From: Hirschia litorea
GTDB taxonomy: Bacteria > Pseudomonadota > Alphaproteobacteria > Caulobacterales > Hyphomonadaceae
Reading direction: 5' to 3'
Length of the DNA: 40,000 nt
Assembly (NCBI RefSeq): GCF_042665075.1
Contig: NZ_JBHTBR010000002.1
Location: 1,288,987-1,328,986, forward strand
In this document: positions 13,131-28,221 of the stretch, one piece after another
Numbering within the stretch: position 1 is the first letter of the stretch
How the letters are laid out: each line of letters opens with the position of its first letter
Made by a program: the position numbers and the translations under genes
Notes under the pieces: model-generated
What the model saw: the letters and a program-made list of their open reading frames with translations, nothing else
What the model was told of the DNA's origin: nothing
Databases searched by the model: none

Positions 13131-14291
13131 ATGATGCTACGCATATTGCGGTCCTTGGGGCCTGCCGTCACTTTTCCATCCATGACAGAAGCCATTCGCG
13201 CTGGCTTTGGTGCGTTTGTCGGTTTGGGGCTAACGGGCCTCTTCGTTCTTTCGCCAATCATTGATCTGCAAACGGGTCTCTATCTCGTTGCGCCCTTTGG
13301 GGCCACGTCCGTATTGCTGTTTGCCGTCCCAAACAGCCCCCTTGCCCAGCCTTGGTCGGCCATTGTCGGCAATACCATCGCCGCTATCATTGCAATTGCC
13401 ATTTGCATGTTCATAAGCGATCCAACCTTGAGCATCGCGCTGTCTGTTGGCCTTGCCATCACGGCCACCATTCTTTGCCGCGCCGTGCATCCCCCCGCAG
13501 GCGCTGTTGCGATGACAGTCGCCATGAGTCCCGAAGCCATTGCGCGCCTTGGCTTTTGGTTTGCGCTCACCCCCATCGCCATTGGCACAATCGCGCTTGT
13601 CGCCGTGGCGATCATCTATGCCAAGCTGACAGGGCGTCATTATCCCTTTCGCCAATATAACGAGCCAAACCAGCACAAGACAAATGATTTAGAACCCATT
13701 GAAAGACTGGGCCTTTCAGAACAAGAACTCACCGATATTCTCGAGCGTTATAGCCAATCCTTCAATCTTGGTGTGGAAGACCTTGCCCGCCTTATCGGTG
13801 CCGCCGAATTACAAGCCGCCGCCCATAGAACAGGCCCGCTCATCGCCGACAACATCATGTCGCGCAATCTTGTGAAAGGGCCGCCAACCATGCCGCTATC
13901 AGATGTTGCCGACCTATTCAGACGGCATAAATTCACAGCCCTTCCCGTTGTCGACTCTGAAGGCATTTTTCTTGGCGTTATTTTCCAGATTCACCTGATT
14001 AATCGCGCCAGAGAAGATTCTCTTCGCCTACATCGTGGTTTTGAACATGTCTTAAAAAGGCTTCTTGATCCTAAGAGAGAACAACCCATTCGCGCCGAAG
14101 ATATTATGAGCGTCACCATTCCCCGCGCCTTTATCTCGACGCCAATTGCCGCCCTTCTGCCCTTAATGGCTGAGGGTGATATCGAAGCCATTCCGATCAT
14201 GGATCATAAGAAAATCATCGGCATCGTCACCCGCACCGACCTCATCGCCGCCCTCGCCCGCACCTATTCCCAATCCCCGCCACCCCCCTAG
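13131..14291 (+). CDS. HPP-family membrane protein fused to a CBS-domain pair
   Basis: The N-terminal TM domain carries the signature CRAVHPPAGA. The C-terminal half has two CBS-like units (IMSRNLV..FTALPVVD; IMSVTIP..IEAIPIMD..IIGIVTRTDL). Confidence 0.85.
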   Translation: MMLRILRSLGPAVTFPSMTEAIRAGFGAFVGLGLTGLFVLSPIIDLQTGLYLVAPFGATSVLLFAVPNSPLAQPWSAIVGNTIAAIIAIAICMFISDPTLSIALSVGLAITATILCRAVHPPAGAVAMTVAMSPEAIARLGFWFALTPIAIGTIALVAVAIIYAKLTGRHYPFRQYNEPNQHKTNDLEPIERLGLSEQELTDILERYSQSFNLGVEDLARLIGAAELQAAAHRTGPLIADNIMSRNLVKGPPTMPLSDVADLFRRHKFTALPVVDSEGIFLGVIFQIHLINRAREDSLRLHRGFEHVLKRLLDPKREQPIRAEDIMSVTIPRAFISTPIAALLPLMAEGDIEAIPIMDHKKIIGIVTRTDLIAALARTYSQSPPPP

Positions 14292-14308: not shown

Positions 14309-14322
14309 CCCGCGAAGGCGGG
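14309..14322. repeat. Left copy of 14-bp direct repeat (putative target-site duplication) CCCGCGAAGGCGGG
   Basis: The exact 14-mer recurs at 28208-28221 in the same orientation, and each copy abuts a terminal inverted repeat. Confidence 0.8.
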
Positions 14323-14345
14323 GGGGTATAGTGATATCCAGAATT
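14323..14345. repeat. Left terminal inverted repeat (GGGGTATAGTGATATCCAGAATT)
   Basis: The 17-bp core GGGGTATAGTGATATCC (14323-14339) is the perfect reverse complement of 28190-28206. The match continues with one indel. Confidence 0.8.
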
Positions 14346-14463
14346 AAATAAATCTGCCCATTTCACCAAAGACAACTGGCGTTCTTAAAATCAAATGACT
14401 TTTGCTATATTACAACGTATGGGTGTTTTAGCTATAAGTGAAAATTAGATTCGGGATTTGGGT

Positions 14464-15480
14464 ATGGGTATCGAAGATTATGTAGCTAGCACGAAATTTG
14501 GTATTGATAACTTGAGTTTTCTATTTGGTGCTGGGACATCATTTGAAGCTGGGTATCCACTCATATCTGGGTTGACAGTCTCCGTATTAGGCGGACTTTC
14601 ACCTGATGAAAACAATAATCTATCAGAAGTATTCACAGCTCTTAAAATTGATGTGAACACCCTAAACATAGAAGAGATTTCTGATTGTGTTCTTAAACAT
14701 TACATTGAAAGTCAGGATATACGGTTTTTTTATTTAATGGATAGAATAAGATCATTGATAAGCGAGGTTATTCTAGATGTTTCAAATCCAAACTTGTCCA
14801 ATCATATATCATTTTTTAATTCTCTAAAACGTAGAGCCTTTAATCGCTCCACTGTTGTCTGGATTTTTACGACGAACTACGATTTGCTCTTTGAAGAAGC
14901 TGCCGCACTATCTGGTGTAAACCTGATAAATGGGTTCACAGGGGTATCGACTAGATTTTATTCAGAAGATGAATTTCATGCTGTGCGAGGTACAAGAAGT
15001 GGTAGTCGTTTTGTAGAAACTCCTGCATTAACTGTAAGGTTAGTTAAACTTCATGGATCAGTTTCATGGTATAAGAATGAAACTAATGTTTTTGAATGTC
15101 ATCCTCAACAAATTCCCCATGACAAGCCACGGTGCATGGTTTTGCCTAGACGCAAGAAAGTCATTGAGACTTTAGATACTCCATATCAGCGACTTTTTCG
15201 AATTTCTAGCGAATTTTTGGGAAGCCAGTGCGTGAATTTAATCGCATCGGGATTTAGTTTTTGTGATGACCATATAAATGATACTCTGATCACCTCCAAG
15301 ATAAACAACGGCAAAATTATTCTGGCTAACTTCTGTGAAGTTGAACCTCCAGAATTGACTGACCTCAGATCAAGACCAAATGTCAGTCATATTACTAAAG
15401 ATAAGCTTATCAATGGTGGGATAGAAACAGCGGGTGCAACCGACTTTTGGAAATTCAGCGAATTTGTAAAACTTTTTTAG
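14464..15480 (+). CDS. SIR2-family (SIR2_2-type) NAD+-binding/NADase protein, partner of HerA
   Basis: Motifs LSFLFGAGTS, IFTTNYDLLFE and VKLHGSVSW are typical of defence-type SIR2 proteins. The gene lies immediately upstream of a HerA-like ATPase. The ORF opens at a TTG at 14458, and the first ATG is at 14464. Confidence 0.8.
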   Translation: MGIEDYVASTKFGIDNLSFLFGAGTSFEAGYPLISGLTVSVLGGLSPDENNNLSEVFTALKIDVNTLNIEEISDCVLKHYIESQDIRFFYLMDRIRSLISEVILDVSNPNLSNHISFFNSLKRRAFNRSTVVWIFTTNYDLLFEEAAALSGVNLINGFTGVSTRFYSEDEFHAVRGTRSGSRFVETPALTVRLVKLHGSVSWYKNETNVFECHPQQIPHDKPRCMVLPRRKKVIETLDTPYQRLFRISSEFLGSQCVNLIASGFSFCDDHINDTLITSKINNGKIILANFCEVEPPELTDLRSRPNVSHITKDKLINGGIETAGATDFWKFSEFVKLF

Positions 15481-15494
15481 GGGGAAGTAAAATT

Positions 15495-17189
15495 ATGGCT
15501 TATCAAATTGGAAAAGTCATTCAGGTCAAAGGCGATCAGATTCATATAGAACTAATTGACCATGATTCTTCTAAACCAATCGGTGTTCCAGAAACTATGG
15601 CGGTAGCAGTACCGACTGATGATGGACCAGAAACTCTACTGATCGGGCAACCTGGCTCGTTTATAGAATTATCCTTACCAAATGGAAGATTGCTGTGCTT
15701 AGTCACAGAAATACAAATGAAGCAGGTTAATATTCCTATCTCAGCAGAAAAATCAGCCATGTTGGAAGGTGAGCTTTTACTAGATAGGGCTGCCAGAATT
15801 CTTGTATCAATTCCTGTGGGAACATTTAATTCAAAGAGCGAATTTGAAAGAGGAACGAACTCCCTTCCAACGGTAAATGCTCCTGCCTTTGCTGTATTAC
15901 CTTCCACAATTGACCGTATTTATGCGAGTTTCGCTGAGGGAGACTTTTCTCTAGGAAAGCTTTCTTTGTTTCCAGAACAAGAAGCCAAAATGAATCTGGA
16001 TGCTTTCCTTGGCAGACATGCAGCCATACTAGGACAAACAGGAGGTGGAAAGTCATGGACCGTAGCGTCTATTTTGCAGAAAATATCTAAATTTCCTCAG
16101 TCTACGGTACTACTTTTAGATCTTCATGGGGAATATACGAACGCCTTTGGTGAAGAAGCTGAAGTAATCGCAGCTAATGAAATAGAAATGCCCTATTGGC
16201 TAATGAACTCTGAAGAGTTGTTGGGTCTGATGATTGATCGAGCTGAAAGTAGCGCGCCCAATCAAAATGCTAAATTCAAAGAATTACTTCAGGAAGCCAA
16301 AGAGAGTAATGTAGAAAATAAAAAATTGGGGTTGGAAAAGATTACAATTGATACTCCGGTGTTTTTTGATCTTAAGTCTATCATCGATGAATTCAGAAAG
16401 TTGGATGTAGAAATGGTCGCGGGTAAAACAAAGCCTGTTAAAGGACCGCTCCATGGGGATTTTACTCGACTATTAATGCGTTTAGAATCTCGTCTAAATG
16501 ATCGTCGTTATGATTTAATTTTTAAACCCAAGACCTACAACACTAGCGCATCGATGAATGATCTATTTCGTAAAATTTTGGGTGAGCAGGAAGATGCTGC
16601 AAAAAAAATTGTTGTGTTAGATATGAGTCCGGTCCCATTTGACGTTCGGGGGTCTATAATTTCACTAGTGCTCAGATGCCTTTTTGATTTTTCATATTGG
16701 TATAGTCGAGTAAATGAGTCTCGGTATCCCATTTCCATCTTTGCTGATGAAGCTCACATATATTTAAGCGACAAATCTAGTGATAGTGCACCACGAGAAA
16801 GTGCAGAGCGAATTGCTAAAGAAGGACGGAAATATGGCCTAAGTTTAACGGTTATTAGTCAGCGTCCGAGAGAGTTATCTTCTACAATCTTATCCCAATG
16901 CGGAAGTTTTCTTTGTTTGAGAATCTCAAATCCAGATGATCAATCTTATGTTCGTAATCTACTGCCCGATTCTGTTAGAGGTATTACCTCTATGTTTTCT
17001 TCATTAACACGTGGAGAGGCTATTTTGATAGGAGATTCAATGATGATGCCTACGAGAATCAAGGTTGATAAACCTAATCCTACACCAAATAGTAACGATG
17101 CTTCATTTGTCGATACTTGGTCAAAGGAAAGAGACGTTTTGGATGTTGAAAAAGTATTGCAGGCGTGGAGAAATCAAAAAATTGTTTAA
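15495..17189 (+). CDS. HerA-like (DUF87/FtsK-HerA superfamily) hexameric ATPase of a SIR2-HerA pair
   Basis: Walker A GQTGGGKSWT, Walker B-like IFADEAHIY and the ISQRPRELSSTILSQCGSFLCLRISNPDD block are present. The ATG at 15495 is preceded by GGGGGAAG. Confidence 0.85.
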   Translation: MAYQIGKVIQVKGDQIHIELIDHDSSKPIGVPETMAVAVPTDDGPETLLIGQPGSFIELSLPNGRLLCLVTEIQMKQVNIPISAEKSAMLEGELLLDRAARILVSIPVGTFNSKSEFERGTNSLPTVNAPAFAVLPSTIDRIYASFAEGDFSLGKLSLFPEQEAKMNLDAFLGRHAAILGQTGGGKSWTVASILQKISKFPQSTVLLLDLHGEYTNAFGEEAEVIAANEIEMPYWLMNSEELLGLMIDRAESSAPNQNAKFKELLQEAKESNVENKKLGLEKITIDTPVFFDLKSIIDEFRKLDVEMVAGKTKPVKGPLHGDFTRLLMRLESRLNDRRYDLIFKPKTYNTSASMNDLFRKILGEQEDAAKKIVVLDMSPVPFDVRGSIISLVLRCLFDFSYWYSRVNESRYPISIFADEAHIYLSDKSSDSAPRESAERIAKEGRKYGLSLTVISQRPRELSSTILSQCGSFLCLRISNPDDQSYVRNLLPDSVRGITSMFSSLTRGEAILIGDSMMMPTRIKVDKPNPTPNSNDASFVDTWSKERDVLDVEKVLQAWRNQKIV

Positions 17190-17201
17190 CGATCAGTCAA
17201 T

Positions 17202-18359
17202 TCAGATACTCCAATTGATCAATTGGGCTAATCGCCTAACCAACTCTGGATTTAACCTGCATACACCGTCTGATTGAATATCAAAATCAGCTCCGGTGAA
17301 AGTCTCTTCTTGAACTAGCTTCAATACAACCCGATCTACAACGGGCCGCATAGGTTCCATAATATCAAGTGCAAAAGATGGCCTTGGTGGTCCTGTTCGT
17401 CCCCTTGAGCGGGTATGAATTATACCCAGCATTGGATCAAAACCAGTTGCGATAGCCTGAAGCTGCATTTGTCCAAGAAGCATTGTGTAGACATAGTTCA
17501 ACATTGCATTGACAGGATGTGTGGCAAATACGTTTTCGGCTTTCCCTTCTCTGAAAAGAGAGGTGCGCGATTTAAAAACAAGCCAGTCGTCAGGAATGGG
17601 ATATTGCTTCGTTGATTTCCACTTTAAATCAATTGACTGCCAAGCTCTGAAATAAGCACTCGCCGCTTGGGCTTCGATTGAAGTTAGCTCTTTCAATTGA
17701 CTATGAGTACCGGTCTTCAATTGCTCAACGAATGCAGGTATTTTTCTTAAAGCTGAATCTCTAGCTTTCGACGTTGGCAAATGAGACTCAAGAGTTTCTA
17801 CAGCGTTATTTAATTTATCTATCATCAAAGGCAGAGCGAAAGATATTTGCTTTGCTTCATCCTTTCTAGCTGCTAATTGCCATTCAAATTTTTCTGGATC
17901 AGCGGATAAACCGCCTGATGTAATTAAAGAAAAGAATTGGCCGTTCCATTTAATTCTAATTAGCGGGATGTTTTGTTCAGTTAGCCAATCCAAGGCATCG
18001 AGTGTAATTGTCCCGTGTCCATCCAAAATTATAATTCTTTTAGGACGATCTAATTCACCCTTAAAATAAGATAATTCTCTATTTTTATTTGGGTAATGCG
18101 TATTACCATCTTTTACAATTAAACGAGCTTTATCGACTTTTAGCGATAAGCCATGGCCCGTTAAAATTAAAGGCTGGTTTTCACGTTCACGGCGCTTTCT
18201 AATTGGTAAAAATGATTGGTATTTGTCTAACCAATAATTGCAGCGATTAGGCCATTCGTGAGAAATGTTATCAGTATTTAAATCCAATTTATTCAATCTA
18301 ATTGTGTCCTTAAGCAGCCAATCAAAACGAATAAGAAATGTCCGATTTAAACACATCAA
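17202..18359 (-). CDS. cas1: Cas1-family integrase (casposase-like, stand-alone)
   Basis: The N-terminal beta domain reads LILTGHGLSLKVDKARLIVKDG..IILDGHGTITLDALDWL..IPLIRIKWNG. The catalytic-domain motifs IEAQAASAYF (Glu), NAMLNYVYT, GIIHTRSRGR (His) and SFALDIMEPMRP (Asp/Glu) are all present. Confidence 0.85.
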   Translation of the reverse strand: MMCLNRTFLIRFDWLLKDTIRLNKLDLNTDNISHEWPNRCNYWLDKYQSFLPIRKRRERENQPLILTGHGLSLKVDKARLIVKDGNTHYPNKNRELSYFKGELDRPKRIIILDGHGTITLDALDWLTEQNIPLIRIKWNGQFFSLITSGGLSADPEKFEWQLAARKDEAKQISFALPLMIDKLNNAVETLESHLPTSKARDSALRKIPAFVEQLKTGTHSQLKELTSIEAQAASAYFRAWQSIDLKWKSTKQYPIPDDWLVFKSRTSLFREGKAENVFATHPVNAMLNYVYTMLLGQMQLQAIATGFDPMLGIIHTRSRGRTGPPRPSFALDIMEPMRPVVDRVVLKLVQEETFTGADFDIQSDGVCRLNPELVRRLAQLINWSI

Positions 18360-19033
18360 ATACTATCACTTATGAATTGATTTCACTAGAACATTCTTGG
18401 GAAGATTATTCCGATTTAGGTATAGATATTTACAATTATAGAAATGAATTAAAACGCTTACGTCACGACAATGGACAAGAAACTAGAGAAGAATCTGATG
18501 CTAGATTACAAAAACTTTTTCAACGTGAAGAAGGTTTAAAGACTCAGCATTTTGATAGAATTCACAACGGGTATTTTGATGCGTTTGGCAATGATATAGA
18601 TAAAGGGGCGGAAAAAACCAAAATACCGCACGCTATGTTTGATGATAGAATTCGTGATTTCGAAATTAATTGGGATTCAAGCACTTTAAAAGCTCATGGG
18701 AAAACGTTCATAGGTATTGAAGTAAGGCCGAGTGATCTCTTGTTGAGAGAAATATCTGAGAGCAAAGACCAATATTCTCAAACGGCAGCCCACATTGTTT
18801 CAAAACCGAATCCATCTAAACAAGGCAGGCCTTCACGTGGCGAACAGATTATGAAGGCAATTCTTCGTCATCACAATGAAAATAAGGCGTGGTTTGACTT
18901 ACCACCTACGGAACGTCGAATTCAGTATTTTAAATTCATAAAAGAAGTTTATCAAAAATGCCCTAAAACAAGCCAAGGTTTTTCATATAAGACTATTGAA
19001 AAATACGAGAAGATTTTTAAAGAAAGTCTATAA
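18338..19033 (+). CDS. Hypothetical protein (231 aa), element-encoded
   Basis: A long AT-rich ORF divergent from cas1. Its 5' end overlaps the annotated cas1 start by 22 nt. No motif recognised. Confidence 0.45.
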   Translation: MSDLNTSNTITYELISLEHSWEDYSDLGIDIYNYRNELKRLRHDNGQETREESDARLQKLFQREEGLKTQHFDRIHNGYFDAFGNDIDKGAEKTKIPHAMFDDRIRDFEINWDSSTLKAHGKTFIGIEVRPSDLLLREISESKDQYSQTAAHIVSKPNPSKQGRPSRGEQIMKAILRHHNENKAWFDLPPTERRIQYFKFIKEVYQKCPKTSQGFSYKTIEKYEKIFKESL

Positions 19034-19043
19034 AAAACAAGGC

Positions 19044-19108
19044 CTATAAAACCTATTTAAAAAAATCACTTTATAGGTTTTTATCTAACTTGCCCATAGG
19101 TTTTATAG
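19044..19108. promoter_or_regulatory. Cluster of three copies of a 13-bp motif ATAGGTTTT(T)ATAG; putative operator/iteron upstream of the polymerase operon
   Basis: CTATAAAACCTAT (19044-19056) is the exact reverse complement of ATAGGTTTTATAG (19096-19108). A third copy, TATAGGTTTTTAT (19072-19084), lies between them. Confidence 0.4.
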
Positions 19109-19168
19109 AGTTCGTTATCTCGATTGTGAAGCGGTTCCCATTGGTCCGCACATTAATCGAGAAGCAAC

Positions 19169-19747
19169 ATGGCCCGCAAACGCGACTATAAAGCAGAATA
19201 CGAACGCCGCTTAGAACGCGGCCGAAAAAAAGGATTGTCGCGCTCACAAGCGCGCGGCCACCCAAAAAAAGGTGAACCCTTGGCAAGTTCACCTCAAGTC
19301 AAACCCAAATCAGATGAGAAGATAGAAGCCGCTCTTCGACACATGCAATTGGGCATGTCGATGACAACAGCTGCGCGCACTGAGCAACTCTCATCCAAAC
19401 GTCTTAGCCAATTCATACACGCGCACGGTATTGCTAAATGGCAAAACCGCAAATGGATCATGAAGGATAGCAGGCCTCGCCGCGTTCCTCATATCAAAGG
19501 TTCATACGCAACCACCGTAACGGTGCCAGACTTTGCAAACGCAAGTCGTGCAGGCCAATACCATAATGCAGTCGGACGGTTTGTGAACACAGGTGATCTG
19601 TCATTCATCGAGCCTTTTGAGGGTGACAGCATCATCGACACCAAAGGTCGTTCTCACCCCTTTGAAACTGACCCCAACAATCTCTTTCGTTACGCTATGA
19701 AAGATGAACCCCCATTCCATGAAATTTATCAAATCGTCTCAAACTGA
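19169..19747 (+). CDS. Basic protein with probable helix-turn-helix (192 aa), first gene of the polymerase operon
   Basis: It has an Arg/Lys-rich N-terminus (KRDYKAEYERRLERGRKKGLSRSQARGHP) and an HTH-like stretch (MSMTTAARTEQLSSKRLSQFI). An AAGGAG for the next gene lies 14 nt downstream of its stop. Confidence 0.55.
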   Translation: MARKRDYKAEYERRLERGRKKGLSRSQARGHPKKGEPLASSPQVKPKSDEKIEAALRHMQLGMSMTTAARTEQLSSKRLSQFIHAHGIAKWQNRKWIMKDSRPRRVPHIKGSYATTVTVPDFANASRAGQYHNAVGRFVNTGDLSFIEPFEGDSIIDTKGRSHPFETDPNNLFRYAMKDEPPFHEIYQIVSN

Positions 19748-19761
19748 AAAGGAGTATTCCA

Positions 19762-20139
19762 ATGGACGATATTATTACTGATGCAGACATTAGACATGAA
19801 AATGCGGTTAGCCGCCTCGGAGGCACAAACAAGCAATGCCTTCATTGCGGTGAAGAAGATGCAAGATGTTTAGAACTACATCATCTCGCCGGACAAAAGT
19901 ATCATGATGACGTGGTTCCATTATGCCGAAATTGCCATCGCAAAATATCTGACACTCAATTAGATCACCCTGATGATCTAAATGCAGCAATGCCTGTCAT
20001 GTTTTCAATAGGTCGCTATCTTTTGGGAATAGCAGATTTCCTTTTGATGATTGCTCATCGTCTGCAAGAGTTTGGACAGCAACTTATAGAATGGGCTCAA
20101 GGTTGCGAATTGGTTCCAATTGAGGAGTCGGTTCAATGA
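19762..20139 (+). CDS. HNH endonuclease
   Basis: It has the zinc and HNH signature CLHCGEED..LELHHL..PLCRNCHRKI. Its stop overlaps the polymerase start (ATGA). Confidence 0.8.
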   Translation: MDDIITDADIRHENAVSRLGGTNKQCLHCGEEDARCLELHHLAGQKYHDDVVPLCRNCHRKISDTQLDHPDDLNAAMPVMFSIGRYLLGIADFLLMIAHRLQEFGQQLIEWAQGCELVPIEESVQ

Positions 20140-22877
20140 TCAAGCTAGAACACAAAACAGCTTACGTTCGCGCCTATTCGGAGAAAACTCAAAAGAAGCC
20201 AGTTAGCCAACATAAGAAGCGAAACAATGTTGATACACCGTCTGACTGGTCACTCGTATTTGATTGCGAAACAAACATTGATGCAGCTCAAGCATTACGG
20301 GTGGGCTTTTATCAAGTCCGCAAGTCAGGTGAGCTTAAATCAGAGGGCTTATTTTATGATCCTGACAATGTGTCGAACTCTGATCTTAAAACCATCCAGT
20401 CTTATGCTGCGAACCATAAGCTAAACATTGGAACCGTCCATGAGTTTAGACACAAAGTATTTCTTCGTGTTGGATATGAAGCACGCGCGTCGATTATAGG
20501 GTTTAATCTACCTTTCGATATATCCCGCATTGCTTTGGACTGTGGTCCTGCGAGAGGAAGCCTTAGAGGGGGCTTTACCTTCAAGCTTTCTGAAGATCGC
20601 ACCAATCCACAAGTCAGAGTGAAGCATCTTAGTTCAACAGCCGCGCTCTATGACTTTGCTAAACCTAAAGGACAAGACACGCCACGCGGAATGCGTAAGA
20701 AGGGTTTGAAAGTTGAACCTCATCGAGGTTATTTCATTGACATAAGAACGATTGCTATGGCCCTGACGAGCCGTAAGCATAGTCTAAAGGGCTTGGCTCA
20801 GTTCCTGAAGGTGGAGACGCAAAAACAAGAGACTGAAGAGCATGGCGGCCCTATAACAGAAGCCTATCTTGATTACGCGCGTGCTGATGTTCAAGCGACT
20901 TGGGAATGCTACGTAAAACTCAAAGCACAATATGACAGTCACGGGTTAGAAACACCGCAGCACCGCATTTTGTCTGAGGCTAGTATTGGAAAAGCTTACC
21001 TTAAACAAAAGCAAGTGAAGCCTTTGCTTGAATGTCAGACTGATCTTCATAGAGAAGACATTGGCCCGATTATGAGTGCTTACTTTGGTGGCCGTGCTGA
21101 AGCGCGTATCCGAAGAGAAATTACTCAAGTTCATTATGCTGATTTCAAGAGCATGTATCCAACGGTAAATGCACTAATGGGGCTTAGTCGCTTTCTTATC
21201 GCAGATGGTTATACCCAATCCGATACAACACAAAATACACAAGAATTCTTGAACACTGCTACTCTTGAAGATCTTCAAAGCAAGAGCACTTGGAAACAGC
21301 TTACAACGCTTGTTTGGCTTAAATCTGATGATGACCTTTTACCCTTCCGCTCCAAGTATGGAGATGAGAAAGGCACGCTCACCATTGGGCTAAATCATAT
21401 CTCTTCAGATACAACGCTCTGCTACTCTCTTGCAGATGTATTGGCTTCCAAAATTCTAACAGGTAAGACGCCTCAAATTGAAAAGGCCATAACCTTTAAA
21501 GCTGGTCCAAAACAAGATGACATTCTGCCAATCAATCTATTTGGAAAGCCTGAATATCGCGTTGATCCACTTAATGAGGATGTGTTTGTAAAGTTCGTCA
21601 ATTTACGTGATGAAGCCAAAGCCCGCAAAGACCCGTTACAACAAGCCATTAAGATCATAGCGAATGCAACTTGCTACGGTATCTTCGTTGAGGTCTTAAG
21701 AGATGAAGCGCCTAAACCTGAAACGCTAAACATCTATGGTCCTGATGGTAATGGCTTTGAAACGAGTTCAACAGCTTTAGAAGAGCCTGGAAAATACTTT
21801 AATCCTGTCTTGGCTGTTCTCATAACAAGTGCAGCGCGACTTATGTTAGCTTTGGCAGAACGTCTCACCACAGATCAAGGCTTAGCTTATACATTCTGCG
21901 ATACTGACAGTATTGCGATGACTAAGCCAGATGACATGAGTGACAAAGATTTCTATCAGCGCGCTCAAAGTGTCATTGATTGGTTTGAGCCGCTAAATCC
22001 ATACCAGAAGCAAGGCTCAATTCTTCAAAGTGAAGATGCAAATTACCATGCTGAAACTGGCAAGTTGGAACCTCTTTATTGTTTAGCTATCTCAGCTAAA
22101 CGCTATGCTTTGTTTAATTTGGATGAAGACGAAAAACCAATCATTAGAAAAGCGTCCGCGCATGGTTTAGGCCATTTGATGGAGCCTTATAATGCAAGCA
22201 ATCCTGCACCTTGTATTCCTAAGCCTGTTATCCCCGTTCATGAGATAGGTGTGAAGCATTGGCAGCATGATTTTTGGTATGTGATCATCACGTCTTTTCT
22301 TAAAGGTGAACCTAACAAAATACCGCGTGATTTCCATCCTGCTTTAGCAAAGCCAGCCCTTAGTCGTTATGGAGCGACTAGCCCTGCAATGCTTTCTTGG
22401 ATGAAACATTTTAACGAGGGTAAGACATACGCTCAAAGTGTGAAGCCGTTTAACTTCCTTACAGCACCGCTTTTGAGAACTGAATGGTACACGCCTGCAC
22501 AATTTGAAGGTAATATACCTGGAGCCAATCCAATCCGCGGCCGTCCTAACGAAGCGTCTAAACCAAAACCGATAGCTCCTTTTGAACGTGATTGCGATAT
22601 TGCGATAAGTAGGATGTTTGATCGGAAGACAGGTGAAACCGTCTCAAAAGAAGTGCTCAAAACCTATGCTGCAGCGCTTGCATCCTACCATTTCAGTCCT
22701 GAAGACAAGTTTGATAATGGCGGATCGTATGATCACGGACCGACACGCAGGAAACACATAAAAGTAGATGGTCTTCAGCTTATTGGGAAAGAAGCAAACA
22801 AGGTTGGAGAAGCTGGACAGCCTGATCCGGTAGCTACGGTGGTAGTCGAATATTCAGACAGTAACGGAATGACGTAA
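20136..22877 (+). CDS. Family B DNA polymerase with 3'-5' exonuclease domain (casposon-type)
   Basis: Motifs present: ExoI LVFDCETN (D43/E45), ExoII GFNLPFDISRI, ExoIII YARADVQATWECY, motif A ADFKSMYPTV (D336), motif B KIIANATCYGIF, motif C FCDTDSIAM (D589/D591, nt 21900-21908) and KxY as AKRYAL. Confidence 0.9.
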   Translation: MIKLEHKTAYVRAYSEKTQKKPVSQHKKRNNVDTPSDWSLVFDCETNIDAAQALRVGFYQVRKSGELKSEGLFYDPDNVSNSDLKTIQSYAANHKLNIGTVHEFRHKVFLRVGYEARASIIGFNLPFDISRIALDCGPARGSLRGGFTFKLSEDRTNPQVRVKHLSSTAALYDFAKPKGQDTPRGMRKKGLKVEPHRGYFIDIRTIAMALTSRKHSLKGLAQFLKVETQKQETEEHGGPITEAYLDYARADVQATWECYVKLKAQYDSHGLETPQHRILSEASIGKAYLKQKQVKPLLECQTDLHREDIGPIMSAYFGGRAEARIRREITQVHYADFKSMYPTVNALMGLSRFLIADGYTQSDTTQNTQEFLNTATLEDLQSKSTWKQLTTLVWLKSDDDLLPFRSKYGDEKGTLTIGLNHISSDTTLCYSLADVLASKILTGKTPQIEKAITFKAGPKQDDILPINLFGKPEYRVDPLNEDVFVKFVNLRDEAKARKDPLQQAIKIIANATCYGIFVEVLRDEAPKPETLNIYGPDGNGFETSSTALEEPGKYFNPVLAVLITSAARLMLALAERLTTDQGLAYTFCDTDSIAMTKPDDMSDKDFYQRAQSVIDWFEPLNPYQKQGSILQSEDANYHAETGKLEPLYCLAISAKRYALFNLDEDEKPIIRKASAHGLGHLMEPYNASNPAPCIPKPVIPVHEIGVKHWQHDFWYVIITSFLKGEPNKIPRDFHPALAKPALSRYGATSPAMLSWMKHFNEGKTYAQSVKPFNFLTAPLLRTEWYTPAQFEGNIPGANPIRGRPNEASKPKPIAPFERDCDIAISRMFDRKTGETVSKEVLKTYAAALASYHFSPEDKFDNGGSYDHGPTRRKHIKVDGLQLIGKEANKVGEAGQPDPVATVVVEYSDSNGMT

Positions 22878-23461
22878 TGGGTTGGGAACGAATGACTGAA
22901 ACAATTAGAGTTTGTGATTGTGGAGAAGGTACCATTACGTACATCTATGAGATGGATGATTGGAACAGAACTCGGAGTTGGGAAGAATTCCAATGCCTGC
23001 ATTGCAAAGCAGAACATCAAATCATCATCGATAAGCGTCAACGAGATCACTTAAAGCGTGAGGCTCTTCTCAAGGAAGCTCAAAAGTTAGCTACTGATTG
23101 CTATCTTGAAAAGTGGTTGGAACATTACAAAGGCCATTCATCGAAGAGAGTTTGGGAAACGCTAACAGGAGGAAAAGTTTATCCAGCGCTTGGAACATTC
23201 TATAGGCATGTTCGTCGTCGTGGACTGGAAGTGGAACTAAAATTTTGGTTCTCCAACGAACTACAAGAGTCACTGAAAATAATAGATGTCGTTGATCAAG
23301 AGATATCCAAACCTCTTGAAGATCGGAATAGAATTCCCGAATTATTTCGACGCTCATTAATCTCCATCTTGGAATATCCAATCAAAGATCGGGCGGAGCG
23401 GCGATTCGTAGAATGGCGGAGCTTTAATATCGCAGACATCTTCGCCGAGGCGGCCGCGTAG
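22877..23461 (+). CDS. Zinc-ribbon-containing hypothetical protein (194 aa)
   Basis: It has CDC..(N33)..CLHC cysteine pairs at the N-terminus. Its start shares one nucleotide with the polymerase stop (TAATG). The last 105 nt overlap the convergent WD40 gene. Confidence 0.5.
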   Translation: MGWERMTETIRVCDCGEGTITYIYEMDDWNRTRSWEEFQCLHCKAEHQIIIDKRQRDHLKREALLKEAQKLATDCYLEKWLEHYKGHSSKRVWETLTGGKVYPALGTFYRHVRRRGLEVELKFWFSNELQESLKIIDVVDQEISKPLEDRNRIPELFRRSLISILEYPIKDRAERRFVEWRSFNIADIFAEAAA

Positions 23462-26400
23462 GATGGAGGCTTTGTCTATCATGTTTTGGTCTATCAGGCG
23501 GATGTAGGGGGTTTCTTTTCCATTCTTGTCTTGTTCTAAAGAAGCAATTAGATGGGAATTACAAAAGCGATCGAAATCATCTTTTTGCGGTTTGATTAGA
23601 CCTGTCCATGTAATATCCCATATACGGACTGTGTTGTCCCAACTCCACGTGAGGATATGTGTTTCATCCTTACTAAAGACGGCACCACTGACCCAGTTCC
23701 CATGTTGTAATGCGGATCCGACCTGCAGGCCAGTTTGCGTATCCCATATCCGCGCGGAGTTGTCATTACTCCAAGTAAGGATACTTGTTCCATCCCTGTT
23801 AAAGACGGCACCATTGATCTCATCCTCATGCTTTAATGAGGCCCCCACCTGCAGGCCAGTGCGAATATCCCATATCCGCGCTGCATGATCATTGCCCCAT
23901 GTGAGAACGCGCGTTTCACCCTTATTAAAAACAGCACCATTGATCCCATCCTCATGTTTTAATGAGGTCCCTACCTGCAGGCCGGTGTGTGTATCCCATA
24001 TCCGCGCTGCATGATCATCGCCCCATGTGAGGATGAGTGTTTCATCCTCGTTAAAGGAAGCACCATTGATATGATCCTCATGCTTTAGAGCTGGTCCAAT
24101 TTGCTGGCCTGTATATACGCCCCATATCCGCGCTGTGTTGTCCCAACTCCATGTGAGGATGCGTGTTCCATCCTTGCTCAAGACGGCACCATTGATACCA
24201 TCCTCGTGTTTTAGAACTGTTCCAATTTGTTGGCCTGTATATACATCCCATATCCGCGCAGTATTGTCCCAACTCCATGTGATGACGCGTGTTCTATTCT
24301 GGCTAAAGACGACATCATCGGTTTCCCCCACATGCTTCAATGTGAAGGATCCAATCTGCTGGCCGGATTGTACGTCCCATGTTCTCACTGTGTTGTTCCC
24401 ACTCAGTGTGAGAACGCGCGTTTCACCCTTATAAAAAACAGCACCATTGATCCCATCCTCATGTTTTAATGAGGTCCCCACCTGCAGGCCGGTGTGTGTA
24501 TCCCATATCCGCGCTGTATCATCATCGCCCCATGTGAGGATGCGTGTTTCATCCTCGTTAAAGGAAACACCTTTGATCCAATCTTCATGTTTTAGTACGC
24601 GTTCATTTTGTACATTCCATATTCGTACTGTATCGCCCCCACTCAGTGTGAGAATGCGTGTTCCATCCTTGCTAAAGGTGGCACTACTGACCCAATCCTC
24701 ATGTTTTAGAGTTGGTCCAATTTGCTTACCGGTTTGTGCGTCCCATATTCGTGCTGTATCATCATCGCCCCATGTGAGGATGCGTGTTTCATCCGCGTTT
24801 AAGGAAGCACCATTGATATTATCGTTGTGAATTAAGGCTGGCCAGACCTCTCTCCCTGTTTGAGCATCGAAGCGAAGCGTTGCGTTAATCGTTATTGTAA
24901 ATATATATGTGCCGTCTTTGTTTAAAATGGCACCTTCAACCTTACTAGTATGCTCCATTGTAGGGCCAATTTGCTGGCCTGTTTGTGTGTCCCACAACCG
25001 CGTTGTGTTGTCTCCACTCCATGTGAGGATGCGTGTTCCATCCTTGCTAAAGGTGGCACCACTGACCCAATCCTCGTGTTTTAGAACTGGTCCAATTTGC
25101 TGGCCTGTATATACATCCCATATCCGCGCTGCATCATCATCGCCCCATGTAAGGACGCGCGTTTTACCCTTGTTAAAAACAGCACCTTTGATCTCGTTCT
25201 CATACTGTAGTGCGGGTCCTATATGCTGCCCGGTTTGCACATCGTAGATGCCGGCGGTGCTATCATTTTTCCAGGTGAGTATACGTGTTCCATCCTCACT
25301 AAAAAGGGCGTCATTGACATTTTCCTCATACTGTAACGTGGGACCAATCTGCTGTTTCGTTTGTGTATCCCATACCCGCGCGATGCTATCATTACTCCAA
25401 GTAAGGATACGTGTTTCATCCTCAATAAAGGAGGCCCCAATTATCTGTACCCCCCCACTAAAGAGGGAGTTATTGACATAATCAACGTGTTTTAGGGGGG
25501 AGCCGATCTGGTGCCCGGATTGTGCGTCCCACAACCGCGCTGTGTTGTCCCTATTCCATGTGAGGATGCGTGTTCCATCCTTGCTCAAGACGGCACCATA
25601 CACATGGCCCTCATGCTTGATACTCAATGTATGGTTTGAGAACTTCTGGGCATTTGACCTAAATCGGCTAAAGGCTTCTTTAGATGCTGGAGACAGGAGT
25701 GTATCTTGAGCGCCAAGAATTACAAGTTTGGATGCTCGCAAGTAATCGCCTTCATCTTCATACTGTCCAGCGACACTTGCAGTAATCAGAGATTCTATTC
25801 TTGCATCATTTCTTATTTTCCTGATTGTTTGCCACCCACCCCACAGAAGGCCTAGAAATGCAATAGAAATGGTGGCGAGAGTGAAACGTTGCCAAAAGAT
25901 TCTTTGTTTTTCTTTTTCCTCAGCTTTACGAATTTGCTCTTCTTCTTTGTGTTTAATCGTTTCCTGATGCGTGTGACATGCATTTAGATAGACCTCTCCC
26001 ACCGGTCCGATGAGTGATTTCAGATCTGCACGCTTAAGAAGGTCCAATGCTTGCGTCAATCGTTCGCCACTGTGAACAAGCAGATCGCTCTTGTGTTCTA
26101 TTTCTTGAGTTTGCTGCTTACGCCATAATTTCGCGGCTTGCTGAACCTGATGCAAGTGCTCAAGTTGAAAACGTTCTTCACCTATCCATGCAGAAAGTCC
26201 ATGCCAATGCCGCAGCACGGCTTCATGTGAGACTTCAATACAGCTTTCGGCTTTGACTATTGATTGCACAAGTAAGCGTTCATCTACAAAATGCGCAACC
26301 AGCTTATGTAGATGTATGGGTAAGCTAGAAAGAAAGGATACACGCCGCATAGGGGATGAATTTGCTTCATCAAGTTGGACAAGCCAAGGAATAAAAATCT

Positions 26401-27799
26401 GGCGAGCGAGTCTGTCTAGCTCTGATCGACTTGAAGGAAGGTCAGGGTCTGCTTCTGCTCGTTTAAATACAGCTTCAACCGCTATATTAATAGCTCCATC
26501 CAGGCCGCCAAGTCCTTCATTATATTTGATAAGTTCCAGAAGATTATTATCCACATATTCTTCAGTCAGTCTCTCAAGCGTGAAGGCCAATAAAGGCAGA
26601 GCATCAGCCGTATCAAGATCTTTTATAAGCTTTTCAGTAAGTGCCGGTTCAATCTTTAATGGTTTTTTTGAAAGCCCCGCGGGTCCTTCAATCACTTCTT
26701 TGAAGGCTTGAGGTGGAAGTGGAGGAAGATTAAACAACTCTAATTGACGTGCCAGATGTTCATGTTTCTGAAGTAAACTGAGACTATCTGAACGGATAGT
26801 GGCAATGACAACTAGGTTCGTGACCCTTGTAAGGCAATGCGTCAATAAATTTATCGCATCCTTACCTGAATGATTGTCCACTGAGAAAAGCTCTTCAGCC
26901 TGATCTATGGGAAGAACAATTGTGGGAGCACGCAGTGTTTGGGTTTCGCCCGCAGCCTTTGCAAGTCGCTCCAAGTGTCGGACACGCTGAGCTGCTATGT
27001 CATTTAAAGATTTTATACTCCGTTCTATAATTTGATTTGATCCTGCTTCCTCTATATTGACAGAGATTGCCTTTAACACCCCTGTTTCACCCGACATTGC
27101 ATCTTGTCTCGGGCGAAAAATCGGGAGGGTGATGAAATTTTCTGTGTCCCGCTGCAAGCGAGACAATAGTCCCGCTTTTAAAAAACTGGACTTACCGGCT
27201 CCGGAAGCCGCAGCTATGGTCAAAATACGCCTCGGTAATCCGCCCCGCATTTGACGTAATTTATCTAAACCCGCTATGATATGCGAATCCCGACCAAAAT
27301 ATATAGCCGCATCTTGCTGTTCAAGTGACCGCAAGCCGCGATAAGGCTTGCGGTCAGGCTCATTTTCCGGAGGCCACATGAAGTGTTTTGGTGATATCTG
27401 CGCTCGTGTGAGCCCGAGCCTCAAATTTTCCAATCCGCTTTCACGGGCATTTAAGGTGGAAATATCTGCAAATTGAATGGAAGCAACAAAATCAGGAATA
27501 GAGGTCGCGAGCGGTTTGATAATGACAGGAAAAATAGGTTTTCCTGATGATTCAGCATGATTGAATTCACGGAGGCATTCGGGTGAACCAATCCAGTTAT
27601 CAGATAGACACACTACCACAGCCTGACAATTATGTCCTACAAAATTGAGACGCTCACGCCATCTATCCCCAGAAACAAATTCGGAAAGATCGATAAAGAT
27701 TTGGGAAGGAGCCCACCCGCCAGATTCAATCAGCCAGTGTCTAAGTGCTTTGGCCTCCGAATTGTCTTCATTCGAATGACTAATAAAAATCTCACTCAT
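23357..27799 (-). CDS. TIR - nSTAND-type P-loop NTPase - transmembrane helix - 16x WD40 repeat protein
   Basis: The TIR-like N-terminus reads IFISHSNEDNSEAKAL. It is followed by the nSTAND1-like hallmark KPYRGLRSLEQQDAAIYFGRD and Walker A AAASGAGKSS (about 27188-27214). One hydrophobic helix follows (FTLATISIAFLGLLWGGW, about 25832-25888), then 16 units of about 42 aa (..DGTRILTWS.DNTARIWD..TGQQIGP.LKHED.I.GA.F). The ATG at 27799 is preceded by GAGGA; a GTG alternative lies at 27817. Confidence 0.9.
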   Translation of the reverse strand: MSEIFISHSNEDNSEAKALRHWLIESGGWAPSQIFIDLSEFVSGDRWRERLNFVGHNCQAVVVCLSDNWIGSPECLREFNHAESSGKPIFPVIIKPLATSIPDFVASIQFADISTLNARESGLENLRLGLTRAQISPKHFMWPPENEPDRKPYRGLRSLEQQDAAIYFGRDSHIIAGLDKLRQMRGGLPRRILTIAAASGAGKSSFLKAGLLSRLQRDTENFITLPIFRPRQDAMSGETGVLKAISVNIEEAGSNQIIERSIKSLNDIAAQRVRHLERLAKAAGETQTLRAPTIVLPIDQAEELFSVDNHSGKDAINLLTHCLTRVTNLVVIATIRSDSLSLLQKHEHLARQLELFNLPPLPPQAFKEVIEGPAGLSKKPLKIEPALTEKLIKDLDTADALPLLAFTLERLTEEYVDNNLLELIKYNEGLGGLDGAINIAVEAVFKRAEADPDLPSSRSELDRLARQIFIPWLVQLDEANSSPMRRVSFLSSLPIHLHKLVAHFVDERLLVQSIVKAESCIEVSHEAVLRHWHGLSAWIGEERFQLEHLHQVQQAAKLWRKQQTQEIEHKSDLLVHSGERLTQALDLLKRADLKSLIGPVGEVYLNACHTHQETIKHKEEEQIRKAEEKEKQRIFWQRFTLATISIAFLGLLWGGWQTIRKIRNDARIESLITASVAGQYEDEGDYLRASKLVILGAQDTLLSPASKEAFSRFRSNAQKFSNHTLSIKHEGHVYGAVLSKDGTRILTWNRDNTARLWDAQSGHQIGSPLKHVDYVNNSLFSGGVQIIGASFIEDETRILTWSNDSIARVWDTQTKQQIGPTLQYEENVNDALFSEDGTRILTWKNDSTAGIYDVQTGQHIGPALQYENEIKGAVFNKGKTRVLTWGDDDAARIWDVYTGQQIGPVLKHEDWVSGATFSKDGTRILTWSGDNTTRLWDTQTGQQIGPTMEHTSKVEGAILNKDGTYIFTITINATLRFDAQTGREVWPALIHNDNINGASLNADETRILTWGDDDTARIWDAQTGKQIGPTLKHEDWVSSATFSKDGTRILTLSGGDTVRIWNVQNERVLKHEDWIKGVSFNEDETRILTWGDDDTARIWDTHTGLQVGTSLKHEDGINGAVFYKGETRVLTLSGNNTVRTWDVQSGQQIGSFTLKHVGETDDVVFSQNRTRVITWSWDNTARIWDVYTGQQIGTVLKHEDGINGAVLSKDGTRILTWSWDNTARIWGVYTGQQIGPALKHEDHINGASFNEDETLILTWGDDHAARIWDTHTGLQVGTSLKHEDGINGAVFNKGETRVLTWGNDHAARIWDIRTGLQVGASLKHEDEINGAVFNRDGTSILTWSNDNSARIWDTQTGLQVGSALQHGNWVSGAVFSKDETHILTWSWDNTVRIWDITWTGLIKPQKDDFDRFCNSHLIASLEQDKNGKETPYIRLIDQNMIDKASILRGRLGEDVCDIKAPPFYESPLRPIFDWIFQDGD
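23606..25625 (-). repeat. Tandem array of about 126-bp coding repeats (16 WD40 units) with high internal DNA identity
   Basis: The periodic recurrence of ..CCCATATCCGCGC.. and CCATGTGAGGATGCGTGT.. is visible by eye. The block 23901-24070 matches 24408-24577 with about 7 mismatches in about 170 bp. Confidence 0.85.
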
Positions 27800-28183
27800 G
27801 ATCGTCCTCACAATCACTTATACTAGCTTTCAGAAGATATCAGGCAAATAATGAAGCGCAAAGTTCAATTATTATGGAGAAAGTGGGGTAAGTTATAAAA
27901 TTAACGTTTGGACATAAAAATAGACCCAATGGAATATGCTTACGAACGGACTAAGGTACAGTTAGCTTTTTTATAATGTACTTCCAATCAGCAAAGCCAT
28001 TAAGCAGTTTGATAATACTTCTTGGGTCTTTCCTGTCAGAGTTTTTAACTATATTTCAAATGTTACCACAGAGGTAAGTGCTCGCAAATGCTGTGCTGCT
28101 CATCAATCCGTTTGAGGTATTTTTATTCCGTGGTGAAAAATAATAAGGTCACCATCAGTATGGGAAGTAGTGTATGACTAATG

Positions 28184-28207
28184 AATTTCGGATATCACTA
28201 TACCCCC
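28184..28207. repeat. Right terminal inverted repeat (AATTTCGGATATCACTATACCCCC)
   Basis: Reverse complement of the left TIR. The core 28190-28206 is a perfect match to 14323-14339. Confidence 0.8.
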
Positions 28208-28221
28208 CCCGCGAAGGCGGG
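28208..28221. repeat. Right copy of 14-bp direct repeat CCCGCGAAGGCGGG
   Basis: Identical to 14309-14322 and directly abuts the right TIR. Confidence 0.8.

Follow-up and report, generated by a model that had tools for sequence, protein, structure and literature searches.

Bacterial STAND and NLR-like receptors have so far been described as intracellular sensors of phage proteins. Among them, the Avs (AVAST) STAND NTPases (Avs1-21), which are patchily distributed and mobile, carry an effector at the N-terminus, the STAND NTPase in the middle and a large repeat sensor at the C-terminus of one polypeptide. For defence-associated STANDs, sensors of the WD40 and FGE-sulfatase types are already on record (PMC13581612). 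Here we consider a gene from a 40,000-nucleotide stretch of the Hirschia litorea genome (NCBI RefSeq assembly GCF_042665075.1, contig NZ_JBHTBR010000002.1, positions 1,288,987 to 1,328,986), referred to below as the window. The gene is carried by a casposon, a Cas1 transposon that replicates itself, and its protein joins a TIR domain and an nSTAND1 NTPase to a large array of WD40 blades by way of a hydrophobic helix. In architecture the protein comes closest to single-pass kinases that have WD40, TPR or FGE domains in the periplasm, and to retroelement-diversified nSTAND1-CLec proteins. We lean toward reading the product as a single-protein, membrane-spanning NLR-like STAND receptor, carried as defence-type casposon cargo, in which the full chain would run from a periplasmic ligand to a TIR output; we judge this somewhat probable, and the sections below set out the evidence for and against it.

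Domain architecture of the protein

A mechanical list of open reading frames (ORFs) gives an uninterrupted minus-strand frame at 23357-27817, 1486 aa long from a GTG start. Inspection of the sequence points to an ATG at 27799, preceded by GAGGA with a 5-nt spacer, which yields a 1480-aa product identical to NCBI record P0001, a Hirschia litorea "toll/interleukin-1 receptor domain-containing protein". An initial annotation, made from the nucleotide letters and ORF translations, had proposed this same 1480-aa frame at 23357-27799 and had read it as TIR, nSTAND, helix and WD40 in that order. The frame is reproduced by the exact match to P0001, and the order by Pfam profiles and AlphaFold2 models. 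From the N to the C terminus, profile searches and structure prediction place the TIR domain, the nSTAND1 NTPase, the hydrophobic helix, 16 WD40 blades and a cap with two cysteines, as follows (TM, transmembrane; window coordinates).

23357-27799, minus strand: TIR-nSTAND1-TM-WD40 gene, 1480 aa; stop codon at 23357-23359, ATG at 27797-27799, GAGGA Shine-Dalgarno
27422-27790, minus strand: TIR domain, residues 4-126; Pfam TIR_2, putative catalytic Glu78 within SPECLREF
26105-27346, minus strand: nSTAND1 NTPase module, residues 152-565; Pfam PF20703, PYRGL...DAAIYFGRD motif, Walker A, Walker B and winged-helix region
25886-26029, minus strand: charged stalk helix, residues ~591-638 (KHKEEEQIRKAEEKEKQR...); predicted cytoplasmic, running on into the membrane segment in the AlphaFold2 model, with a Lys/Arg-rich N-side kept in the family
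25823-25885, minus strand: predicted single TM helix, residues 639-659 (FTLATISIAFLGLLWGGWQTI); hydropathy maximum of the protein
25619-25822, minus strand: far-side membrane-adjacent helical region, residues 660-727, before the propellers; AlphaFold2 helices at model residues 87-98 and 108-126
23600-25618, minus strand: sixteen WD40 blades, residues 728-1400; tandem beta-propellers, predicted extracytoplasmic sensor
23360-23599, minus strand: C-terminal cap, residues 1401-1480; conserved C1413 and C1456, without a Pfam match

The N-terminus, called TIR-like in the initial annotation, matches Pfam TIR_2 over residues 4-126 (E=3.4e-16, 60.3 bits against a cut-off of 28). Residues F5, S7, H8, W47, S72, C75 and E78 of this domain are invariant across 60 homologues, and we take E78 to be the catalytic Glu by its place in an S..WC..E motif of the kind present in plant and bacterial TIRs. 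By fold and profile, and by its catalytic-type Glu, the domain is a TIR, and NADase activity is predicted for it. A PDB sequence search with the N-terminal profile returned weak TIR matches only (chains of TLR6, TLR1, TLR2, a plant TIR, MyD88 and Cat1) and did not detect a solved nSTAND1 relative, and an NCBIfam scan gave no named-family assignment and at most a weak TIR-like match. Looking through the clade for alternative N-terminal effectors, we found 10 split-match candidates, all of which proved to be TIR domains with a ~20-residue insertion.

The NTPase assignment is equally direct. Pfam nSTAND1 (PF20703) covers residues 152-565 with E=3.6e-66 (224.8 bits against a cut-off of 27.1) and spans model positions 1-377 of 379. 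The PYRGL..DA..FGR motif and the Walker A P-loop, from which the initial annotation had proposed an nSTAND1-type NTPase, are both present, and significant profiles were found for the TIR and STAND parts alike, both of them strong matches. The motif corresponds to KPYRGLRSLEQQDAAIYFGRD at residues 151-171; among the 60 homologues G155, G169 and R170 are invariant within it, and L156, D163 and A164 are conserved in at least 90%. Walker A reads G200-A-G-K-S-S205 and Walker B D299-Q-A-E-E303, with G200, G202, K203, S205, D299, E302 and E303 invariant in the same homologues. A profile match over the full model, intact Walker A and B motifs, and a STAND fold, in which helical and winged-helix domains come after an AAA+-like core, place the protein in the nSTAND1 clade.

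Pfam WD40 and beta-propeller models span roughly residues 728-1400. Segmentation of the sequence gives 16 blades of ~42 aa, and the ~64 beta-strands of the AlphaFold2 model agree, which confirms the blade count first proposed. The blades are strikingly alike, with a mean between-blade identity of 52% and a maximum of 86%, and the underlying DNA is a tandem repeat with a 126-nt period; the variable blade positions fall in three stretches of the blade alignment. An 8+8 split into two propellers is plausible because the linker of blade 8 is shortened. Beyond the blades lies the cap, whose C1413 and C1456 are invariant in our alignments A4 and A7. A profile search with this 80-residue two-cysteine cap, aimed at signal peptides or other enzymes upstream of it, recovered only six short fragments. 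The cap also holds a AAPILRGREGEDVC-like motif.

Structure prediction was run with AlphaFold2 on two overlapping halves (residues 1-700 and 600-1480), with alignments built from the retrieved homologues. The first half (mean predicted local distance difference test score, pLDDT, 80.2) shows the TIR domain, a low-confidence linker, the NTPase core, helical and winged-helix parts, and a continuous helix over residues 591-682. The second (mean pLDDT 82.3) begins with a long helix at 601-683, followed by two short helices, the beta-strands and a small alpha/beta cap. In both models the hydrophobic segment lies within an isolated continuous helix and is not packed into any domain. Foldseek searches of the PDB link the N-terminal half to Orc1/Cdc6, the plant TIR-NLR RPP1, CED-4 and Apaf-1 (E from 6e-8 to 4e-6), and the C-terminal half to the Nostoc "highly repetitive propeller" 2ymu, Apaf-1 and other tandem-propeller proteins.

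The TIR-STAND coding sequence also contains a perfect 12-bp stem (8 G-C pairs, 7-nt loop) at 27326-27356, where the codons for PDRKPYRGLRS form the TIR/NTPase junction; read on the opposite strand, it was picked up by a scan as terminator-like. Chance codon usage may account for it, or it may be a regulatory hairpin. The number of sites returned by the promoter and terminator scan was not above chance expectation.

Topology of the hydrophobic helix

Topology was inferred from four kinds of evidence: hydropathy, flanking charge, cysteine statistics and the modules that are swapped across the family. Residues F639-I659 form the most hydrophobic stretch of the protein (19-residue Kyte-Doolittle maximum 1.54), and the second-best segment is much weaker on the Hessa scale. 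The segment is uncharged over 21 residues and has Trp on both sides, a mean hydrophobicity of 0.66 and a hydrophobic moment of 0.16, that is, low amphipathicity. In the region that follows (660-727), a motif S.TLA..A......G.Y.RA.RL is conserved in alignment A4.

The helix is a property of the family. In 117 of the 120 best homologues the hydropathy maximum falls at the equivalent position, ~70 residues past the end of the nSTAND1 model, and a 118th has a weaker helix at the same place; among the best homologues the median length of the uncharged core is 21 residues. Lys and Arg average 5.8 in the 15 residues before the helix versus 2.1 after it, and the N-side is the richer one in all 117 homologues (117/117). 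In an independent set of 104 representatives clustered at 50% identity, the helix is present in at least 92, of which 86 also carry more positive charge on the N-side. It is retained in nearly all of ~80 loci that we collected from at least 9 phyla, drawn from Alpha-, Beta- and Gammaproteobacteria, Nitrospira, Acidobacteriota, Planctomycetota, Cyanobacteria, Bacteroidota, Actinomycetota and Desulfobacterota. Members without it are P0063, P0118 and about 6 of the 104 representatives.

By the positive-inside rule, the TIR domain and the NTPase would face the cytoplasm, and therefore everything past the helix would face outward. Both enzymes need cytoplasmic substrates, NAD+ and NTP.

Cysteines give a second view of the same question. 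In helix-bearing homologues, the ~850 residues after the helix hold essentially two cysteines, both within ~100 residues of the C-terminus, where exactly this number is present in 105 of 116 homologues. Outside this tail the post-helix cysteine frequency is 0.08%, versus 0.71% before the helix. The Hirschia protein follows suit, with cysteines 58, 64, 75, 322, 520 and 608 before the helix and only C1413 and C1456 after it. Parity points the same way: among 72 representatives at 50% identity, the count after the helix is even in 59 (binomial p=4e-8), versus 33 before it, while six helix-less relatives all have odd counts and more cysteines. Proteins that fold in an oxidising compartment usually have their cysteines paired and few left free. 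Because the cysteines are paired, and otherwise depleted, after the helix, we infer that the C-terminal region is extracytoplasmic, from sequences that are related to one another. A C1413-C1456 disulfide probably staples the propellers and cap, which would lie in the periplasm.

The family thus presents a conserved ~20-residue uncharged segment, positive-inside asymmetry and an extracytoplasmic cysteine signature, the features of a single-pass protein with its N-terminus in and its C-terminus out, and the Hirschia copy is marginal in hydrophobicity. The helix is most likely a true single-pass anchor of this orientation. The initial annotation had called a membrane segment between NTPase and sensor odd, as it would set effector and sensor on opposite sides of the membrane unless the helix was no true span. 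Family-wide evidence favours a true span with just that arrangement; the oddity itself is a family feature.

Post-helix modules and distribution of the family

The family is large and scattered. The candidates scored in the first homologue search include more than 1,600 proteins, and a search with query residues 1-700 at E<=1e-30 yields 1,864 clusters at 50% identity. No other sequence falls in the 90%-identity cluster of the Hirschia protein, whose nearest homologues, 46-56% identical, sit in unrelated contexts.

What follows the helix differs between relatives: WD40, TPR (Pasteurella), Sel1 (Mesorhizobium) or FGE-sulfatase modules. In the single-pass Ser/Thr kinases of Planctomycetota, the WD40, TPR and FGE modules are predicted to lie in the periplasm (PMC11032199), and Kaur et al. 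list Sel1 among wall-associated domains with membrane segments in front (PMC7159879). Because the helix position, charge bias, cysteine pattern and post-helix modules are conserved or shared in the family, we read these proteins as transmembrane STAND receptors.

The FGE-type module occurs at 12 of ~78 loci, and in 4 of those 12 a reverse transcriptase gene lies directly downstream. At three loci (L025:10825-11253, L069:10771-12528 and L059:3441-5216) there is a pair of 86-125-nt repeats, one at the 3' end of the STAND gene and the other a template copy, and the mismatches between the repeats fall on template adenines (16 of 17, 16 of 17 and 12 of 14, respectively). Repeat pairs of this kind together with a reverse transcriptase are the sequence signature of a diversity-generating retroelement, present in at least three homologue loci. 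Such retroelements diversify nSTAND1/NACHT-CLec "antigen sensors" (PMC10907252). Because the retroelement diversifies it, the post-helix FGE module would be a ligand sensor.

No conserved neighbour or partner gene was found across 78 loci; the largest neighbour cluster covers 8 of the 78 and is made of paralogues, followed by tyrosine integrases at 7 loci and then by patatin, TIR-TPR and reverse transcriptase genes. Some homologues adjoin an integrase, others lie on rhizobial or Rhodococcus megaplasmids, and at one locus peptidoglycan-binding, muramidase, CHAT and patatin genes cluster nearby as a set of conflict genes. A search of phage genomes for the family gave one distant match only. We also considered a housekeeping WD40 family, conserved at this locus in relatives lacking the element; this is ruled out by the location inside the element, the singleton 90% cluster and the 46-56% relatives in unrelated contexts, and the 78 loci show no fixed position.

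In a Hyphomonas locus (L001:14276-17764) a 1162-aa protein without a Pfam match is encoded 7 nt after the TIR-STAND gene and before a tyrosine integrase; not conserved elsewhere in the set of loci, it may be a lineage-specific partner.

The casposon and its cargo

The gene lies within an element whose features are listed here.

14323-28207, no strand: casposon, 13,885 bp; inverted repeats, target-site duplication and Cas1/HNH/PolB core
14323-14350 and 28179-28207, no strand: terminal inverted repeats GGGG(G)TATAGTGATATCC..., by sequence inspection
14309-14322, no strand: target-site duplication, left copy CCCGCGAAGGCGGG, 14 bp, by sequence inspection; repeat I17
28208-28221, no strand: target-site duplication, right copy CCCGCGAAGGCGGG, 14 bp, by sequence inspection
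predicted empty site, as it would read without the casposon: ...TTTCCCGCGAAGGCGGGAACCC...
14458-17189, plus strand: SIR2-HerA pair, first cargo module; PADLOC SIR2 E=7e-132, HerA E=6e-172
17202-18359, minus strand: Cas1 casposase (core); Pfam Cas_Cas1, E=1.4e-40, 52% identical to Henriciella marina Cas1
19762-20139, plus strand: HNH endonuclease (core); PHROGs HNH matches
20136-22877, plus strand: family B DNA polymerase, PolB (core); Pfam DNA_pol_B_2, PHROGs DNA polymerase matches
22877-23461, plus strand: 194-aa ORF after PolB; convergent with the TIR-STAND gene, whose 3' end it overlaps by 105 nt (23357-23461)

With Cas1 and a family B polymerase between inverted repeats, and with a target-site duplication, the element is a casposon. 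A first guess, from PolB motifs, had been a pipolin, which is ruled out by Cas1, the inverted repeats and the 14-bp duplication. As inverted repeat I1 the ends extend to 31 nt at 87% (14320-14350 / 28179-28209). The target is a GC-rich hairpin, CCCGC-GAAG-GCGGG, just downstream of the HPP-CBS gene (13131-14291) and duplicated at both ends of the element; it is probably the terminator of that gene. GC content is 42.4% in the casposon versus 47-48% in the flanks, which encode ordinary chromosomal functions. Henriciella is among the genera in which the cas1-polB islands later called casposons were first found.

Three related casposons, from Henriciella and metagenomes, retain a core of a 192-aa ORF, a 125-aa HNH protein, PolB and Cas1 in the same gene order, and in the related casposon L084 (Cas1 62% identical) a counterpart of the 194-aa ORF follows PolB. 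Cargo differs among them. L084 has a CTD12 - MC6/MC8 - DUF2326 set beside Cas1 (L084:7648-10623), a conflict-system-like cargo; a second has a 1319-aa protein with a double-PIN-associated helix-turn-helix domain together with a 632-aa protein, and a third a single 1296-aa protein without assigned function. Because the related casposons share the core but differ in cargo, the TIR-STAND gene is best seen as variable cargo. The initial annotation's view of it as a second cargo gene filling one third of the element holds up on both counts: it lies inside the boundaries set by inverted repeats and target duplication, and its 4,443 bp make up 32% of the 13,885 bp. The two cargo modules differ in GC content (37-39% versus 46%), which suggests that they were acquired separately, and both SIR2-HerA and TIR-STAND are predicted to target NAD+. 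When 48 casposons were surveyed, a far smaller share of their genes than of pipolin genes proved to be defence genes (PMC11551731).

A proposed mechanism and its alternatives

We speculate that signalling would begin at the surface of the propellers, with the binding of a periplasmic ligand, which might be a phage tail or ejection protein, an activity that degrades the cell wall, or a product of envelope damage. Binding would reorient or cluster the continuous stalk-membrane helix and release the NTPase, which would then oligomerise at the inner face of the membrane. The TIR domains gathered in this way would form active NAD+-cleaving sites, and loss of NAD+ or a TIR-made signal would arrest the infected cell. 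The casposon would spread the TIR-STAND gene along with SIR2-HerA, a second NAD+-targeting system. The model predicts a C1413-C1456 disulfide, propellers exposed to the periplasm, and phenotypes that depend on E78 and K203.

Several observations weigh against this proposal. The Hirschia helix is the least hydrophobic of the family, with a simple Hessa sum of +3.0 kcal/mol versus a family median of -1.1 (the sum is below zero in 93 of 120 homologues), and flanking Lys+Arg in this copy number just 6 on the N-side versus 4 on the C-side. The helix and cysteine statistics are drawn from homologues that are not independent of one another. A propeller region of ~820 residues that follows 640 cytoplasmic residues would require post-translational or late co-translational Sec export. 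To our knowledge, no STAND NTPase is known to be activated across a membrane, and we found no phage test of any member of the clade in the literature that we searched. PADLOC (PADLOC-DB v2.0.0, which dates from 2023 and is older than Avs7-21) gave no match to the TIR domain or the NTPase, its sole match being a weak one of HEAT-ARM_XIII to the WD40 region (E=1.3e-6).

Some of these points would sit more comfortably with a soluble cytoplasmic NLR-like sensor, in which the helix would be buried or serve oligomerisation and the propellers would sense a cytoplasmic phage protein, as Avs and Apaf-like STANDs do. The marginal hydrophobicity and small charge bias of the Hirschia helix fit such a protein, as does the loss of the helix in P0063, P0118 and the few representatives noted above, and published bacterial STAND sensors, those with WD40 and FGE included, are treated as intracellular (PMC13581612). 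Against it, the segment has 21 uncharged residues and little amphipathicity; it is modelled as isolated and unpacked, its position and positive-inside asymmetry are conserved family-wide, and the Hirschia protein keeps the family cysteine pattern, with six before the helix and the two conserved ones after. We therefore regard the soluble sensor as unlikely. A different departure from our proposal would give the helix to the effector, as a tether or a latent pore former that inserts or clusters only after activation and damages the membrane instead of sensing across it. Membrane-disrupting helices are common in bacterial abortive-infection effectors and plant resistosomes, and here the helix is borne on a long, rigid, charged stalk. 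But it lies internally, between NTPase and sensor; the protein already has a dedicated effector in its TIR domain, whose catalytic-type Glu is invariant; cysteine parity and the positive-inside signature point to a constitutive topology; and in relatives the helix is followed by modules typical of extracytoplasmic regions (Sel1, FGE). All of this makes the role very improbable in our view.

It is also possible that the protein does span the membrane but is not directed at phage. It might instead respond to signals from the envelope or from outside the cell, and serve to recognise kin, to take part in contact-dependent conflict with other bacteria, or to bring about cell death of a social or developmental kind; such roles have been suggested for the STAND "conflict systems" that are over-represented in multicellular bacteria. 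The clade nSTAND1 was itself defined among counter-invader and apoptosis-like systems of multicellular bacteria (PMC8195603, PMC7159879), the homologue near peptidoglycan-binding, muramidase, CHAT and patatin genes would suit this setting, and a periplasmic sensor is well sited for secreted toxins or cell-wall fragments. On the other hand, the Hirschia gene shares its casposon with SIR2-HerA, a known anti-phage system, and homologues adjoin integrases and occur on plasmids. The present data do not separate anti-phage from anti-bacterial targets; on balance we consider a purpose other than phage defence rather unlikely.

Returning to the membrane-spanning receptor, we tentatively extend it to the family as a whole, a step that we think possible and less than probable: these proteins may be "transmembrane NLRs", in which a STAND NTPase would read a periplasmic pattern-recognition domain through one helix and fire a cytoplasmic TIR NADase, the periplasmic domain being WD40 here and TPR, Sel1 or retroelement-diversified FGE/CLec in relatives. 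If true, bacteria could detect invaders at the envelope, before or independently of cytoplasmic events, and Toll-like-receptor topology would be merged with an NLR engine in one polypeptide, spread here by a casposon, as a bridge between the animal TLR and NLR logics. STAND pattern recognition would then extend to the periplasm in a clade of at least 1,800 clusters (50% identity) from many phyla. The organisation of this casposon, in which a conserved Cas1-PolB core is flanked on either side by exchangeable cargo of a defence type, extends to casposons the pipolin-type picture of a "defence island on a self-replicating element".

Comparison with known systems

The initial annotation had likened the protein to NLR-like and Avs-type immune receptors. 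The layout of effector, STAND and repeats bears this out (Foldseek RPP1, CED-4 and Apaf-1); an Avs assignment of the NTPase by PADLOC does not follow, and the protein differs from Avs in its nSTAND1-clade NTPase and in the conserved membrane helix between NTPase and sensor. Apaf-1 and bacterial Apaf-1-like WD40 STANDs share a STAND NTPase followed by tandem WD40, and Foldseek links Apaf-1 to both halves of the protein. Apaf-1, however, works with CARD and caspase and has 7+8 blades, whereas the Hirschia protein has a TIR domain, 16 highly self-similar blades, a predicted membrane span and propellers that would lie outside. Plant TIR-NLRs (RPP1, PDB 7crc) have the same order of TIR, STAND and repeat sensor, and in both a TIR NADase would be expected to assemble by oligomerisation; they use LRR and NB-ARC where the Hirschia protein uses WD40, nSTAND1 and a membrane helix.

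Like Toll-like receptors, the protein would have an ectodomain built of repeats and a TIR domain in the cytoplasm, on opposite sides of one membrane helix, a likeness of topology and logic only. It lacks the LRR ectodomain, the type I orientation and the absence of an NTPase that define those receptors: its repeats are WD40, its orientation is opposite, its N-terminal TIR carries a catalytic-type Glu, and an NTPase stands between TIR and membrane. The Planctomycetota Ser/Thr kinases (PMC11032199) share a cytoplasmic N-terminal enzyme, one helix and predicted periplasmic WD40, TPR or FGE domains; their output is a kinase. The retroelement-diversified nSTAND1/NACHT-CLec sensors (PMC10907252) share the NTPase clade and TIR effectors, and FGE/CLec retroelement pairs occur at the homologue loci L025, L059 and L069. 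That paper judged its nSTAND1 targets likely cytoplasmic, whereas the homologues described here carry a conserved helix, and the Hirschia protein differs in having WD40 blades and no retroelement. In the searchable text of the nSTAND1-defining and STAND-survey papers we found no explicit mention of a membrane helix between STAND NTPase and sensor.

The element itself resembles the family 3 bacterial casposons, as in Henriciella marina, in its Cas1, PolB and HNH core, its inverted repeats and its 14-bp target duplication, and differs from them in a cargo of two defence-type modules, SIR2-HerA and TIR-STAND. What was known, then, is the family, which is already in databases; what is new is the membrane-spanning reading and the carriage of such a gene with SIR2-HerA on a casposon.

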